Position numbers and translations under genes: made by a program. DNA of 64,000 nucleotides, from the NCBI GenBank assembly GCA_000004985.1, contig GG738887.1. One strand, given 5' to 3'. Origin of the DNA: Naegleria gruberi (taxonomy: Eukaryota). Positions 52,474-57,703 of this stretch are shown piece by piece (position 1 is the stretch's first letter; every line of letters begins with the position of its first letter). A model generated the notes under the pieces. That model ran no database searches and was not told the origin of the DNA. It worked only from the letters and a program-made list of their open reading frames with translations.

Positions 52474-52790
52474 TGTGCTATAATTCATTCAATGGCGACT
52501 CACTTTTATGTTTTGAGATTTATGGCTAGTTTGAATGGCCACATGTGGTTCTATAATAAACGCGCAAAAGTATCTCTTATTCGGAAAGGGTTGATTCTTC
52601 TGTAATTCAATTGAACCGACAACCAAATTCTTTACAGTCTGCTCAAACCGGTACTCACAATACCAGAAAGTCTTCCTTGTTCCCTCCAGTTACCACCTAA
52701 CAGCACTTATTAAACCTTGGGGTTCACTGAAAAACAAATTAGAAAAAAACAAGACAATTCAATCATTAGCAACACTCTCAATCCAGCAAC

Positions 52791-53216
52791 ATGTCCACTG
52801 AATCAATAATGAACAATTCGTCTCCATCAATGAATAATAGCGCTTGTGGTGGTACAGGAAGACTCAGATCAAGAACCTTCTCTCATAGACCATCACTAGT
52901 ATTTGCTAACAACATTAATCAAACAACAAACAGCAACAACACTGCTTCTTTGAATATTAGAGAAAATAACAACAATGGCTCACCTCTCTCATCAGAATCA
53001 ATTAGAAAAAGAAGTAAGAGCGCAATAGGGGTTGGAGGACTCTATGCACAACTCACACTGAGCTCACACTTCCTTTTAGATAAATACGAAGAAGATTTGA
53101 GTGATAAACTGAATAAGATTGAATCTAGCAATTTGTCCATCAAGAATTTGTTCAATCACAAGCGAAGATTATCAGCTTACTCTAATCAAAGACCAACAAT
53201 AGAAATTACAATGTAA
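52791..53216 (+). CDS. Hypothetical Ser/Asn-rich small protein.
   Basis: 141-aa ORF from ATG; low complexity. Confidence 0.3.
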   Translation: MSTESIMNNSSPSMNNSACGGTGRLRSRTFSHRPSLVFANNINQTTNSNNTASLNIRENNNNGSPLSSESIRKRSKSAIGVGGLYAQLTLSSHFLLDKYEEDLSDKLNKIESSNLSIKNLFNHKRRLSAYSNQRPTIEITM

Positions 53217-53365
53217 TCCAATACAACCAAAACATATAGCCACGCGAGTCAATCCATTAAAAATTAATCTTTGTACAAAACAAACTACAAGTATCAAATC
53301 CTCAATTTCCTCATTTTGCAAGAATTCAAAATAAATAAAAATTTAAAAAAAATTGAAAGAGTTTG

Positions 53366-56315
53366 ATGCTTCCTTCATCATCCACAAATCAACGCGGAAG
53401 AAACTCTGATGATCATCGGAATATGAAAGGAGGAGGCTCATCAGCAACCTCATCAAATACTAGTAATAATAATGCGTCTGTCTGCAAATTAAAGTTTAAA
53501 AAACCTAATGCTAATCCTTCTTCATCATCATTGGAAAAATCAAACTCTTCTGTACATGTAAATATGGATGATTTATTGAAGAAATTAAACGAGGAACAAC
53601 GAAGAGCTGTTTGTTCCAATAATGATCAAGTGATTGTTATGGCTGGTCCAGGAACAGGTTTGTTTTTATTGGATATTGTTGTGATTTTTAAAATTCGAAA
53701 GGAAAAACCTCGGTTATTACCTATAGGTAGGTGACAATAATTAGTTTGGAATTTTAATAGTATTTGTTTCGGATAGGATCTTTTATCTTGTACATCAATT
53801 GAAAATTAATCCAAAGAATATTTGTGCATTGACCTTCTCAAGACAAGCAGTATGTTTATGATATTTAGTGATAATTTATATTTCCAATATATTCAGGCAA
53901 AGGAAATGAAGCAAAGATCTATGGCTTTGGATGATAATTTAAAGAATGTGACATTTTCTACATTCCATGCCAAAGGTTTATCATTGTTGAAACAGTATAA
54001 ATTAGTGAGGAAATTTAAAATTGCAGACGAAAGGACGATTATGTCAATAATTTCAAGAATATTAGGTAAGTTTTCAAATCATACATTCCATCACATCATT
54101 AGAGGGACTAGAAATTAGTGAGCAATGCACACCAGCAGAAATGAAAGATGCATTAGCTTTTGTTAAGAATGCAGGTATTACACCTGAAACAGTGTCAAAA
54201 TTGAAAAATAAGGACATTAATGTTCCTCTCAGTTTCTTTGTACCATTCTACAAAGAATATGAAGAGACACTCGAAAGAGAAGAAATACTAACACACGAAG
54301 ATTTAATTTTCAAAGTAGTCAAAGCTTTAAAACAAAATCAATCCATCCTTAAAGATGCTTCCCAAAAAATTCAATATCTCCTTGTTGATGAATATCAAGA
54401 CACTAATGATTTGCAATACGAGTTTACAAAATTATTGATACAGCACCATAAGAAAATATTTTGTGTTGGTGATTCGTAAGTAGTAATATTTTACAATATG
54501 ATTGAGATTTGAATTTTTAGAAAGCAAGCAATTTTTGGTTGGAGATTTTCTAATGTACAGAACTTTGTAAATTTAACGAGTGATTTCCCAAATGCAGAAA
54601 CAATTATTCTAAAACAAAACTATAGAAGTACTAGTAATATTTTGGATGCCAGTTTTGACATGTTGTTGAACGCAAAGGATGAAAAACCAAGTGGTGAAAA
54701 GAAAGATATCAAATCAATTATTTTGGACGATTCAAAGTCCAGATTGCTTTCTCAGAAGGGTAGTGGCGCTACTGTTACTCTAAAAGAATTTCTCACTCAC
54801 ACAGAGCAGCTAAATTTTGTTGTGGAGAGTATCAAAAATCATGTAGAAAAGAATGGAGGAAGATATGGCGATTTTGCAATTCTTGCTCGTGTAAATAATT
54901 TACTTCGACCCTATGAAGCTGAATTTGAGAAACACAAAATACCTTGTGAGTCCAATAAGAGTGGATTTACCAATGCAGCTTGGGTTCAAGTCATGTTGAG
55001 CTACTTGGAGACTATTGACTCCATTTCTAGGAATAGCGTGAATGGAACAGCCTTCAGAAAGATTGTAAATATACCAGATAGACGAATTTTCACCGAGACT
55101 GGTACTGCTGTTGTTGATTGCCTCATGAATGGAATTAAACTTGCTGACCTTATAACAATGATAGAAAAGAAACAAAGAATTATGAACTTGAAGATTGGAA
55201 AACAGATAACATTTTTAATTTCTATGGATAGAGAGGAGCATGCCTCAGTGTTGGGATTATTGAGACAAATACAAGAAATGTCAAATTTAATTAATGGAAA
55301 TACTGGCTGTATAAAAGCAGTAATTCAATACATTACAGAATTTGTAGGTTTTGAGGAATATATGAGAGTGCACTACAAACCTTTTGAGAAATGTTGGAAA
55401 GATATTGAAGAACTAATGACAATGTCTGAAAAATCAGATAATTTACAAACCTATTTACAAGAAGTGAACATGATAGAGGAAGGATCAAGAACAGGGGCTG
55501 GGGTTGCCTTGATGACAATGCACTCTTCGAAAGGTCTAGAATTTGAACATGTATTTCTTACAGATTTAATTGATGGAGTTTCTCCGCACTATAAATCAAA
55601 AGGATCTTCAAGGGAAGAGGATGAGGAAAAGAGACTACTATTCGTTGCCATGACAAGAGCCAGATCCAAGATGTATCTCATGACCACTAAGACAAAACAA
55701 AATAATGAGATGATTGAACTAGTGGAACCAACACCTTGGTTAAAGACTCTTCGATTTAAACAATATGTTGACTACCAACCAATTCCAAGAAAGGTAGATA
55801 GAGAAATAGAAGAAGCTGCTGATATAGCAATCTTTTTGAAAAAACATTTGGAATCTATAGCTCCCAAACCTAGTGCCATTGCTAAAGTGGAAGAGGACTT
55901 CAATCTGGAAGATATTGACATTTCTCAAAATCAAACAAGTTCCTCCTCTTCTACAGCACCAATGTTCATGTCTGCTACGAGCTATATGGAAAGTGATATG
56001 TATGAGAATGATGAATTTAAACTGATTGAGGAGGATGAAGAGGAGGTGATATCAAAACCAATTGTTGTGACACCTTCAGTTAAACCAATTATTCAAACTA
56101 AAGATACACAAAGCAAGGCAACAGAGGATGTGTTCGAGTTAGAGGAAGACTCTAATGATGAGTTGGATATTGATTTGGATGATATTATGGATTCCCAAAT
56201 CAATCAAGATGTTGTTGCAAAGACTGACTCGCAACAAATAGAAATATTTGAGGATGAGTTTCAATTTATTGATGAAGAGTCATTTGAAAGTGACAACAAA
56301 AAGCGAAAATTATAG
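53366..56315 (+). CDS. UvrD/PcrA/Srs2-type superfamily-1 DNA helicase, 6 exons including a 25-nt micro-exon. Exons: 53366..53647, 53692..53716, 53777..53849, 53897..54065, 54112..54475, 54521..56315.
   Basis: The spliced N-terminal region reads LNEEQRRAVCSNNDQVIVMAGPGTG|KTSVITY|RIFYLVHQLKINPKNICALTFSRQA|AKEMKQRS...TFHAKGLSLL...IISRIL|EISEQCTPAEMKDAL...LLVDEYQDTNDLQYEF...IFCVGDS|KQAIFGWRFSNVQNF...KQNYRSTSNILDAS... This gives motifs I, Ia, II, III and IV in order. Donors are GTTTGT, GTAGGT, GTATGT, GTAAGT and GTAAGT. Later motifs include MTMHSSKGLEFEHVFL and LLFVAMTRARSK. It has an acidic C-terminal tail. Confidence 0.8.
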
Positions 56316-56419
56316 TCACATTCGTTTCATGTAAATTGATATTTCTATGATTTGAATATTCAAACCATCTGTAATCCTTTCTTCTCCTATTTTGGTGTAA
56401 AATATTCCAATGCACTCAC

Positions 56420-57703
56420 TTAATAAACTTGGAGTCCTCTCTCTTCGAAGAAATCTAAAATTGATGCCACACTTGTGCATTCTGAAAACTCTATAACATC
56501 TGCAGATAAAAATTGATGGTGAGAATAGAGCATAAACATAATATGATGTTGTAAAATATGGAACGGAACTCCTCCTATTTGAATAGCTATTTGTAAATAT
56601 CTTTGAATACACTCAAAAGGTACATAATCATATCCACTGAATAATGCTGGATTAGATAATAATCCACGAGCACTCATTACACCATCACATCCTGTCTCTT
56701 TAGCAAAACGATCTGAATCTCCCAAAGTAAAAATATCACCATTATGCATTACTGGTACGTTTAGGATTTGTTTGATTGTTTTAGGTCCATCTGGATTGAC
56801 TTTGGTATTCTTTGTTCTTTGTTTATGTGTTCTTCCGTGTACAGTAACCCAAGATGCTCCAGCCATTTCAATTTGTCTTGCAAGCTCTATTGTTTTTCTA
56901 AATTCAAGTGTATCATCCTCAGGATGCAATCTTATTTTCACACCAATTGGTCTACTCATTCCAGAAATGAATTTGTTATTGGCCTCATGAACCATATCAA
57001 AAATCTTTTGAGGTTTAGTCACCAAAGCAGCTCCCAAACTTTCTTTCATCACATAAGGTTGTGGGCATCCACAATTCAAATCAATTCCATCACAATAAGG
57101 TGCTGCCAATTGACAAGCTAAACTAAAATCAGTAGGATTATTAGCAGCAAATTGAACCACAAGAGGGCTATCATAATAATGTGTTGTAAAATCCGAATCC
57201 CTGGCTTTTTGTGATTTATGAAAACAATCCGACATTATCATTGGTGTATAAACAACATCACATCCATACTCTCTACACAACAATCGAAAGGCTAATTTAC
57301 TATAACGAACCATTGGTGCTTGTACTTTTAAATAGGTTCCCTTCTCCTTAGCCTCCTTGAACATATTCATCAACGAATGTCGTGGTTTTAATTCATCAAT
57401 ACTAAAGCCTTCCGGTAAATTTTCTCCAACTCTTAATATATTATTATTAATATTATTATTATTATTATTACTATCATCATCATTTAAATTATTCTTATTA
57501 ATAAAAGTATAGTTATTATTAAAATTGGTTGGAAGATGAACACAATTAGTTTCATTAACTAATGATGAAGGTCCTTCGGAATAATCAAAATCGTTTCTGT
57601 CTAATTGGAAAGCACCCAAATCGATGCGGAGGGCGTTATTATGACAGAATTGTGTCTCGGAAATGAATGAATTTTCGTCATCCTGTGTTGGTTGTTGAAG
57701 CAT
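56420..57703 (-). CDS. tRNA-dihydrouridine synthase (Dus family) with an N-terminal Asn-rich region.
   Basis: LKVQAPMVRYSKLAFRLLCREYGCDVVYTPMIMSD...PLVVQFAANNP...IDLNCGCPQ...VKIRL...ASWVTVHGRT. These are FMN-binding TIM-barrel Dus motifs. Confidence 0.85.
   Translation of the reverse strand: MLQQPTQDDENSFISETQFCHNNALRIDLGAFQLDRNDFDYSEGPSSLVNETNCVHLPTNFNNNYTFINKNNLNDDDSNNNNNNINNNILRVGENLPEGFSIDELKPRHSLMNMFKEAKEKGTYLKVQAPMVRYSKLAFRLLCREYGCDVVYTPMIMSDCFHKSQKARDSDFTTHYYDSPLVVQFAANNPTDFSLACQLAAPYCDGIDLNCGCPQPYVMKESLGAALVTKPQKIFDMVHEANNKFISGMSRPIGVKIRLHPEDDTLEFRKTIELARQIEMAGASWVTVHGRTHKQRTKNTKVNPDGPKTIKQILNVPVMHNGDIFTLGDSDRFAKETGCDGVMSARGLLSNPALFSGYDYVPFECIQRYLQIAIQIGGVPFHILQHHIMFMLYSHHQFLSADVIEFSECTSVASILDFFEERGLQVY

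Follow-up and report, generated by a model that had tools for sequence, protein, structure and literature searches.

A probably constitutive 25-nt micro-exon encoding the Walker-A Lys-Thr of a UvrD/Rep/PcrA-family helicase in Naegleria gruberi

Introduction

The locus described here raises two questions: whether the P-loop of a DNA helicase in Naegleria gruberi is interrupted by two introns in such a way that its Lys-Thr pair lies on an exon of only 25 nt, and whether such an exon acts as a regulatory switch or is simply always included. Both the exon and the switch had been proposed in an initial annotation of the window, that is, the whole 64,000-nt stretch of contig GG738887.1 (assembly GCA_000004985.1) analysed here. 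Exons of 27-30 nt or less were regarded as the micro-exon size class. Among plants, conserved constitutive micro-exons of a length not divisible by three are frequent, and plant micro-exons are a known annotation hazard (PMC8831610). A survey that took in N. gruberi found intron retention to be commoner than exon skipping in every species but one (PMC6142364). Literature searches for Naegleria together with microexon, or together with Srs2/UvrD, returned nothing specific.

Results

Gene structure of the helicase

Joining of six exons gave an uninterrupted ORF with a spliced product of 908 aa. The five introns removed (44, 50, 47, 37 and 45 nt, respectively) were all of the GT-AG type, so that ten of the ten splice sites were canonical. 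The features are as follows.

53366..53657, + strand: exon 1, 292 nt, beginning with the ATG and ending on base one of codon Gly98; encodes M1...AGPGT(G)
53658..53701, + strand: intron 1, 44 nt, phase 1, donor GTTTGT, acceptor AAG
53702..53726, + strand: micro-exon, 25 nt, GAAAAACCTCGGTTATTACCTATAG; codes for (G)KTSVITY(R), with the Walker-A residues K99 and T100
53727..53776, + strand: intron 2, 50 nt, phase 2, donor GTAGGT, acceptor TAG
53777..53849, + strand: exon 3, 73 nt; encodes (R)IFYLVHQLKINPKNICALTFSRQA, helicase motif Ia included
53850..53896, + strand: intron 3, 47 nt, phase 0, donor GTATGT
53897..54065, + strand: exon 4, 169 nt
54066..54102, + strand: intron 4, 37 nt, phase 1, donor GTAAGT
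54103..54475, + strand: exon 5, 373 nt; DEYQD (motif II) and, with VGDS, the beginning of motif III
54476..54520, + strand: intron 5, 45 nt, phase 2, donor GTAAGT
54521..56315, + strand: exon 6, 1795 nt with the stop codon; motifs III-VI, UvrD_C, acidic C-terminal tail and terminal KKRKL

The micro-exon was read as G|GA AAA ACC TCG GTT ATT ACC TAT AG|G, supplying two thirds of the Gly98 codon, the codons of K99, T100, S101, V102, I103, T104 and Y105, and two thirds of the Arg106 codon. It is internal, not longer than 30 nt, bounded by AG and GT and needed for the reading frame, with junctions at 53657^53702 and 53726^53777. The start of the protein, ML(P/H/N), was common to the N. gruberi product, N. 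lovaniensis P0001 and the spliced product of a third Naegleria contig (L003).

A 25-nt exon had been annotated at 53692-53716, with boundaries at 53647/53692 and 53716/53777. The length and the boundary at 53777 stand; the other three boundaries were each 10 nt too low, and the interval 53692-53716 (AATTCGAAAGGAAAAACCTCGGTTA) consists of the last 10 nt of intron 1 and the first 15 nt of the micro-exon. The upstream intron is 44 nt as had been given, the downstream one 50 nt instead of 60 nt, and the reported GTAGGT donor was located at intron 2. The peptide reading AGPGTG|KTSVITY|RIFYL was correct, and the ORF track does run through the intron: an ORF of 123 aa (53363-53734) passes from exon 1 through intron 1, enters the micro-exon out of frame and ends at a TGA.

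An Rfam search of 52500-56800 gave no match. An ab initio census of introns by ORF joining across the window, meant as a splice-site baseline for the species, was dropped as too ambiguous. An N. gruberi protein at NCBI matched the neighbouring Dus ORF with 100% identity.

Assignment to the helicase family

Domain matches were judged by the Pfam gathering scores. PF00580 (UvrD-helicase) was matched over its full length in one stretch (positions 1-271 of 271; 9e-69, 232.6 bits against a cut-off of 23), and PF13361 (UvrD_C) was matched with 1e-40 (140.6 bits against a cut-off of 25.6). In the match to PcrA 1pjr (5.7e-71), motif I was aligned without gaps, MAGPGTGKTSVITYR lying against 15 PcrA residues, with K99 and T100 opposite the catalytic K37 and T38 of PcrA and GPGTGKT opposite GAGSGKT of 1pjr. 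In an alignment of 20 sequences, conservation in the columns of K99 and T100 was 90% or more, and the Walker A signature GxGKT is present solely after 53702-53726 has been spliced in. Sought by the patterns DExQD (II), GDxxQxI (III), QNYRS (IV) and VAxTRA (VI), the further motifs were present and aligned as DEYQD, VGDSKQAIFGWR, QNYRS and VAMTRAR, respectively. The domain match and the PcrA alignment thus bear out that the Walker-A Lys-Thr of a UvrD-family helicase lies on an exon of 25 nt with a very short intron on either side, and the protein is assigned from its sequence to the UvrD/Rep/PcrA (SF1A) family. For the exon-6 part a predicted structure was available, with a pLDDT of 77.

Compared with bacterial PcrA, UvrD and Rep (PDB 1pjr, 2is1 and 1uaa), the protein has the same PF00580 plus PF13361 architecture, and its SF1 motifs can be aligned with theirs, beginning with Walker A GxGKT and ending with VAMTRA; by this family membership, ATP-driven 3'-5' translocation on single-stranded DNA is presumed. 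It differs from them in being only ~30% identical, in being encoded by a eukaryotic gene with five introns, in its long Ser/Asn-rich N-terminus and its acidic C-terminal tail ending in KKRKL, and in having no counterpart of the bacterial C-terminal Tudor-like region. All NCBIfam equivalog cut-offs were missed (PcrA 351 against 911 bits, Rep 315 against 951, UvrD 283 against 1144), the best model, PcrA, staying far under its own cut-off.

The protein had been called 'UvrD/Srs2-type', of which the first half holds. Like Srs2 of yeast and plants it is a UvrD-family helicase of a eukaryote, and its C-terminus is probably nuclear-targeting, which together with the acidic tail was likened to Srs2. 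Outside Heterolobosea, the best matches listed were bacterial PcrA at ~30% identity. No named eukaryotic Srs2 was found among the best 120 matches listed after the three heterolobosean ones; these 120 were prokaryotic proteins (bacterial PcrA where named) or unnamed metagenomic ones. An Srs2 orthologue would be expected to group with eukaryotic Srs2 and not with the bacterial helicases, and to carry modules for interaction with Rad51, PCNA and SUMO in its C-terminus, a region of the Naegleria protein in which unassigned motifs were seen. Srs2 orthology is unproven.

Conservation of the micro-exon in Naegleria

The exon structure was compared among four orthologues, from N. gruberi, N. lovaniensis (L001), the third Naegleria contig (L003) and Willaertia magna (L002), as the initial annotation had advised. 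Both of the other Naegleria have this 25-nt exon, with its positions and phases unchanged:

L001 3438-3462 and L003 667-691: orthologous micro-exons, 25 nt each

The three micro-exons differ at synonymous third positions only (ACC/ACA, TCG/TCC, GTT/GTC and TAT/TAC). The positions and phases of five of the five introns recur in N. lovaniensis and L003, where the counterparts of intron 1 are 73 and 98 nt and those of intron 2 are 59 and 66 nt, respectively. The ungapped PcrA motif I, the full PF00580 match and the recurrence of the exon in two other Naegleria together indicate that the micro-exon is real, beyond chance.

In Willaertia, introns 1 and 2 are absent and GPGTGKTSVLTYRIYW is encoded contiguously, with AG|GT and AG|A at the two sites; an intron of the same phase lies 15 nt upstream. 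The position of intron 3 is common to N. lovaniensis, L003 and Willaertia (L002 3305-3357), as is that of intron 5 (L002 3897-3947); intron 4 is present in the two other Naegleria and absent in Willaertia. As far as these genomic sequences tell, the split of Walker A is Naegleria-specific among the four orthologues, because Willaertia has an intron at neither site.

The N. lovaniensis protein C9374_006341 (P0001; GCA_003324165.2, PYSW02000027.1) is an orthologue with 55% identity, and its deposited model has exactly the same micro-exon, so the statement that such exons are routinely missed by gene predictors does not apply to it. Its introns around the exon are longer, with 73 and 59 nt, and have no sequence relationship to those of N. 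gruberi, and the model omits KQAIFGWR...QNYR (motif III and following) because of a 1-nt frameshift in the assembly.

The comparison also bears on whether the micro-exon is an artefact of model building, exons 1 and 3 being joined in the true mRNA by removal of some other, single intron. Twelve single-intron alternatives do leave a long ORF open, but none of the twelve yields GKT or aligns to any homologue, whereas the two-intron model is 8/8 identical with the two other Naegleria and 7/8 with the intron-less KTSVLTY of Willaertia. With exon length and splice phases conserved in three species as well, the probability of an artefact appears close to nil.

Effects of mis-splicing and splice signals

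Skipping of the micro-exon gives a frameshift and a product of 105 aa, and retention of intron 1 or intron 2 leads almost at once to a stop (128 and 106 aa, respectively), the truncation falling before or within the P-loop in each case. That mis-splicing would ruin the protein had been foreseen correctly. Skipping had been expected to give an ATPase-dead or frameshifted helicase; since 25 nt is not a multiple of three and the stop follows after 105 aa, the frameshift stands and simple skipping cannot yield an in-frame ATPase-dead product.

These outcomes are what a regulated on/off switch would exploit, in which inclusion of the micro-exon or removal of a flanking intron is modulated and the output alternates: either a productive mRNA, or one with a frameshift or a stop, which is degraded or gives a stub of roughly 105-128 aa. 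The same effect would follow, however, from skipping any internal exon of the gene, and exon skipping is the rarer mode in nearly all surveyed species outside bilaterian animals (PMC6142364). In none of the three Naegleria can the exon length be divided by three, which sets it apart from typical regulated micro-exons (PMC8831610).

A switch might also be read from the intron-1 donor GTTTGT, which with T at +3 is the least consensus-like among the 19 introns of the four orthologues and could cause some splicing inefficiency in N. gruberi. The corresponding donors are GTAGGT and GTAAGT, or GTAGGT and GTGAGT, in the other two Naegleria; the predicted splice-site strength around the micro-exon is thus not conserved, the donors being stronger there. 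A small hairpin able to sequester the intron-2 donor can be drawn in all three Naegleria (z -0.8, -2.4 and -0.9), but it was rejected as not significant in two of the three, and it results largely from the Thr-Tyr codons and the donor consensus. A consensus RNA structure from exon 1 to exon 3 was also rejected (0 compensatory pairs, -10.5 kcal/mol). Local alignment of the intron cores against shuffled sequences gave z from -0.7 to 2.7, with a best p of 0.02-0.04 among 15 tests, and no conserved flanking intronic element in the Naegleria orthologues survived correction for these 15 tests.

A second route would join the donor at 53658 to a cryptic AG at 53759/53760 in intron 2. The predicted product (junction 53657^53761, 103 nt removed, GPGTVFVSDRIFYL...) has 905 aa and would be a Walker-A-less, ATPase-dead and possibly dominant-negative helicase. 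In N. gruberi this combination keeps the reading frame open; against it, intron 2 of N. lovaniensis or L003 has no equivalent in-frame acceptor, homology support is absent, and roughly a dozen in-frame GT-AG combinations, this one among them, occur in the region by chance. Such an isoform is exceedingly improbable. With flanking introns conserved no further than by chance, and donor hexamers and the cryptic in-frame alternative unconserved across the three Naegleria, the regulatory switch that had been proposed is not upheld and is regarded as very unlikely.

Protein record of the locus

No N. gruberi product of the helicase locus was found in protein database searches or exact look-ups; the exact look-ups of the spliced protein, the neighbouring ORFs and the three contiguous ORF products found none in the collection. 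A search with the N-terminal 224 aa returned as its lone match a 148-aa protein on a 907-nt contig and missed P0001 and P0002. Since known relatives were missed by the homologue search, the absence of the N. gruberi product is weak evidence for a missing gene model. In metagenome contigs, a degenerate 45-nt pattern of the spliced junction (exons 1, 2 and 3) had no match, and no relative was confirmed with the helicase protein.

A decaying or unexpressed locus, whose micro-exon would have no current role, could explain why the helicase product was absent when the product of the neighbouring gene was found. Against decay, the 908-aa ORF is intact over six exons, all SF1 motifs of the PcrA alignment are kept and every splice site is canonical, and in the helicase core pN is far below pS against the orthologue (0.25 against 0.78, synonymous sites being saturated). 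As the database search demonstrably misses relatives at times, decay is considered very unlikely.

Discussion

The 25-nt exon is very probably a constitutive coding micro-exon in the gene of a UvrD/Rep/PcrA-family (SF1A) DNA helicase, its inclusion being suggested by gene structure and conservation. Two short spliceosomal introns (44 and 50 nt) sit 25 nt apart in the region encoding the P-loop, and only joining of the 25 nt to exons 1 and 3 gives GPGTGKTSVITYR with the frame kept. Introns so short are most likely each recognised as a unit (intron definition), under which a small exon would be no special obstacle and would always be included. The arrangement is maintained in at least three Naegleria species, with purifying selection on the protein.

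Constitutive plant micro-exons (Yu et al. 2022, PMC8831610) resemble this exon in being very short exons within a conserved protein domain, in the conservation of size and phase across species, and in that about half are not multiples of three, so that their omission frameshifts the model. Those of the plant study differ in being 15 nt or less and flanked by much longer introns, whereas the Naegleria exon has 25 nt, introns of 44-50 nt and a heterolobosean amoeba as host. With the animal neuronal micro-exons regulated by SRRM4/nSR100, the size class (27-30 nt or less) is shared; those are mostly multiples of three, with alternative inclusion and conserved elements in the flanking introns (PMC8831610), and the Naegleria exon has neither a multiple-of-three length nor such elements and is probably always included.

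A more speculative proposal is a splicing checkpoint for helicase dosage, in which the weak GTTTGT donor and the hairpin over the intron-2 donor would make productive splicing depend on conditions, or the N. gruberi cryptic acceptor at 53759/60 would give an in-frame helicase lacking the P-loop. It is given very little credence here; if it were true, either route would tune anti-recombinase activity post-transcriptionally.

With the constitutive reading preferred, the micro-exon looks like an ordinary one, and no new regulatory principle is suggested. The main value of the analysis lies in a corrected gene model (six exons, 908 aa) for an N. gruberi helicase of the UvrD family, whose gene is apparently without a product in the public protein sets searched. 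It is a clean annotation example, the catalytic P-loop becoming visible only once the 25-nt exon is spliced in, and for this reason protists with short introns need annotation guided by homology or RNA-seq.

Gene structure and boundaries of the micro-exon

Micro-exon boundaries were determined by reading 53000-54500, with manual and scripted splicing. The micro-exon is real, but its location in the initial annotation (53692-53716) was wrong by 10 nt, and that interval (AATTCGAAAGGAAAAACCTCGGTTA) contains the tail of intron 1 and a portion of the micro-exon. The features of the locus are as follows.

53366-53657, + strand, exon 1
53658-53701, + strand, intron 1 (44 nt, GTTTGT...AAG)
53702-53726, + strand, exon 2, the micro-exon (25 nt, GAAAAACCTCGGTTATTACCTATAG)
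53727-53776, + strand, intron 2 (50 nt, GTAGGT...TAG)
53777-53849, + strand, exon 3
53897-54065, + strand, exon 4
54103-54475, + strand, exon 5
54521-56315, + strand, exon 6
56420-57703, - strand, single-exon Dus-like tRNA-dihydrouridine synthase gene, adjoining the helicase gene and 100% identical to the NCBI entry 'predicted protein [Naegleria gruberi]'

The length of 44 nt previously given for the first flanking intron was correct, the 60 nt given for the second should be 50 nt, and the start of exon 3 at 53777 was the sole boundary placed correctly. The GTAGGT donor is present and belongs to intron 2. Splicing reproduced the proposed division AGPGTG/KTSVITY/RIFYL, and the structural interpretation, i.e. 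the Walker-A Lys-Thr of a UvrD-family helicase carried on a 25-nt exon, was right. As had also been noted, the ORF track reads through: the mechanical ORF at 53363-53734 crosses intron 1 and ends at a TGA just within intron 2.

In the spliced model, six exons give a CDS of 2727 nt encoding 908 aa. Introns 1 to 5 (44, 50, 47, 37 and 45 nt) are all GT-AG, with the donors GTTTGT, GTAGGT, GTATGT, GTAAGT and GTAAGT, respectively. Intron 4 (54066-54102), at 37 nt, is close to the minimum size of spliceosomal introns; its position and phase are kept in two other Naegleria, where it measures 135 and 84 nt. The gene is unusually intron-rich for N. gruberi, for which 1.7 exons per gene are published (PMC8296547).

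Identity of the helicase

The 908-aa product matched the Pfam profiles UvrD-helicase (9e-69, whole profile in a single stretch) and UvrD_C (1e-40), and its closest solved structures were PcrA (1pjr, 5.7e-71), Rep and UvrD. Alignment to PcrA showed no gaps across the spliced region (vmagpgtgktsvityrifylvhqlkinpknicaltfsrqaakemkqr), with K99/T100 opposite K37/T38 of 1pjr. NCBIfam models ranked PcrA, Rep and UvrD in that order, each far under the equivalog cut-off. Together, these matches identify the product by homology as a UvrD/Rep/PcrA-family SF1A helicase. Of the former label 'UvrD/Srs2-type', the UvrD-family part was borne out by the Pfam matches and the PcrA alignment; the Srs2 part was not established. 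After three heterolobosean hits (one each from N. lovaniensis, from Willaertia and from a Logan contig), the best 120 homologues listed were prokaryotic, including unnamed metagenomic proteins; the named ones were bacterial PcrA (about 30% identity), mostly from Lactobacillales and other Firmicutes, and no named eukaryotic Srs2 was among them. The heterolobosean helicase could be of ancient eukaryotic origin or bacterial-derived.

A 148-aa ORF product (P0241) from a 907-nt Logan contig has MAGPGTGKT..ITHRIFYLIH in common with the helicase (43% identity). The C-terminal tail (55530-56315, aa ~722-908) is acidic and of low complexity. Three short motifs in it are common to Naegleria and Willaertia and may bind partners: SSSTAP-x-[IM/L]F[MQ].A[ST].Y (SSSSTAPMFMSATSYM in N. 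gruberi), an acidic-hydrophobic block (IEIFEDEFQFIDEE or EEFEFKFLDEEE) and, at the very end, KKRK[LM/V], which is probably a nuclear localisation signal.

Neighbourhood and annotation

The identity of the Dus-like product marks the window as N. gruberi DNA. GC content was 31-38% in most 2-kb bins of the window, in agreement with the published 33% (PMC8296547). Gene order around the helicase is unlike that in N. lovaniensis and the third Naegleria (L003), where a BTB-domain gene comes after it. Neither homologue searches nor exact look-ups, the latter made with the spliced product and with contiguous ORFs, found an N. gruberi protein for the helicase locus; one of these searches also missed known relatives. 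The neighbouring Dus-like product is present in the protein collection, unlike the helicase product. This hints that the helicase is absent from the deposited N. gruberi gene set, from which it may have been left out or in which its model may be incorrect.

Conservation among Naegleria

The comparison covered three orthologue loci: L001 from N. lovaniensis, L002 from Willaertia magna, and L003, a Logan contig of SRR29240419. Introns were mapped by a brute-force GT-AG search between codon anchors and by exact mapping of deposited proteins. The L003 helicase is 72% identical to that of N. lovaniensis (exon-6 part).

Table. Lengths of introns 1-5 and micro-exon positions in three Naegleria
N. gruberi: 44, 50, 47, 37, 45 nt; micro-exon 53702-53726
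N. lovaniensis (L001): 73, 59, 59, 135, 71 nt; micro-exon L001 3438-3462
Third Naegleria (L003): 98, 66, 77, 84, 55 nt; micro-exon L003 667-691

Each of the five introns of N. gruberi has a counterpart of matching position and phase in both N. lovaniensis and L003. The micro-exon is 25 nt long in all three species, with differences confined to synonymous third positions (ACC/ACA, TCG/TCC, GTT/GTC, TAT/TAC). In the helicase core, pS between N. gruberi and L003 was 0.78 (synonymous sites saturated) and pN 0.25. Intron cores were no more similar than shuffles (best nominal p 0.02-0.04 in 15 comparisons). On sequence comparison, the pattern is that of a coding exon under purifying selection within freely drifting introns. 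The feature is a conserved micro-exon of an ordinary kind, and an orthologous copy is already in public annotation, within the gene model deposited for N. lovaniensis.

Intron 1 of N. gruberi (53658-53701) and that of N. lovaniensis (L001 3365-3437) share ATATTGTKGT..AYTTTWAAAATT in their 3' halves (nominal p 0.04, not significant after 15 tests), and ATATTGT also occurs in L003. The N. lovaniensis assembly carries a 1-nt frameshift at L001 4455-4475 (coding stretch DFPNADIIILKQNYR; GACTTCCCAATGCTGAT vs GACTTTCCCAATGCCGAT in L003). The deposited helicase (P0001, C9374_006341) bypasses it by a 175-nt 'intron' and therefore lacks KQAIFGWR...QNYR (motif III and the next segment); frameshift and gap are probably an assembly or annotation error.

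Intron history

Comparing exon structure in orthologues, as had been proposed, showed the sequence divided in all three Naegleria to be contiguous in Willaertia, where GPGTGKTSVLTYRIYW is uninterrupted. Willaertia has the intron 3 and 5 sites in common with Naegleria, is without introns 1, 2 and 4, and has one further intron of its own, more 3'. In addition, the Willaertia Ala codon of LAGPGTG is interrupted by a 46-nt intron (L002 3146-3191) of phase 1, the phase of Naegleria intron 1. Its site lies exactly 15 nt upstream of that of Naegleria intron 1, which could reflect intron sliding or independent gain. Willaertia introns contain ACTAAC/ACTAAT branch-like motifs, which N. gruberi introns lack. 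At the sites of Naegleria introns 1 and 2, the intron-less Willaertia sequence reads ACAG/GTAA and TATAG/AATT, which resemble proto-splice sites. With no intron at either site in Willaertia, the Walker-A micro-exon split is Naegleria-specific among these four orthologues; this four-way comparison would fit gain in Naegleria as well as loss in Willaertia.

Mis-splicing outcomes and mode of splicing

For N. gruberi, skipping of the micro-exon was computed to give a frameshifted 105-aa product, retention of intron 1 128 aa, retention of intron 2 106 aa (stop two codons into the intron) and retention of both 122 aa. Skipping had been expected to yield an ATPase-dead or frameshifted helicase; the frameshift holds, and an in-frame ATPase-dead enzyme therefore cannot arise by simple skipping. 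A cryptic in-frame option joins the intron-1 donor to the AG at 53759/60 within intron 2, removing 103 nt (GPGTVFVSDRIFYL), with a predicted 905-aa product without the Walker-A Lys-Thr. No equivalent in-frame acceptor was found within intron 2 of N. lovaniensis or L003, and the pairing is one among a dozen chance in-frame GT-AG pairs locally.

The suggestion of a regulatory switch received no support from flanking introns, splice-site strength or RNA structure. Intron cores showed no conservation relative to shuffles among the three Naegleria, and no weak splice site was conserved: the intron-1 donor is GTTTGT in N. gruberi and GTAGGT in both others, and intron 2 has GTAGGT, GTAAGT and GTGAGT as its donors in the three species. 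A perfect 12-nt palindrome (TACCTATAGGTA, 53718-53729) spans the micro-exon/intron-2 donor junction, and a small hairpin over this donor was predicted in all three species (z -0.8, -2.4 and -0.9, two of the three failing to reach significance relative to shuffled sequence). The pairing arises because ACC-TAY-AG meets the donor consensus, and a consensus RNA fold across the region contained no compensatory pairs. The spliced-junction pattern had no match in the metagenome contigs scanned. Regulated micro-exons of animals are typically multiples of three, and about half of those of plants are not, with constitutive members well documented (PMC8831610). Intron retention was more frequent than exon skipping in every surveyed species except one, N. 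gruberi being in the survey (PMC6142364). The 25-nt exon is most likely a constitutive micro-exon, each short flanking intron of which would be recognised as a unit (intron definition).
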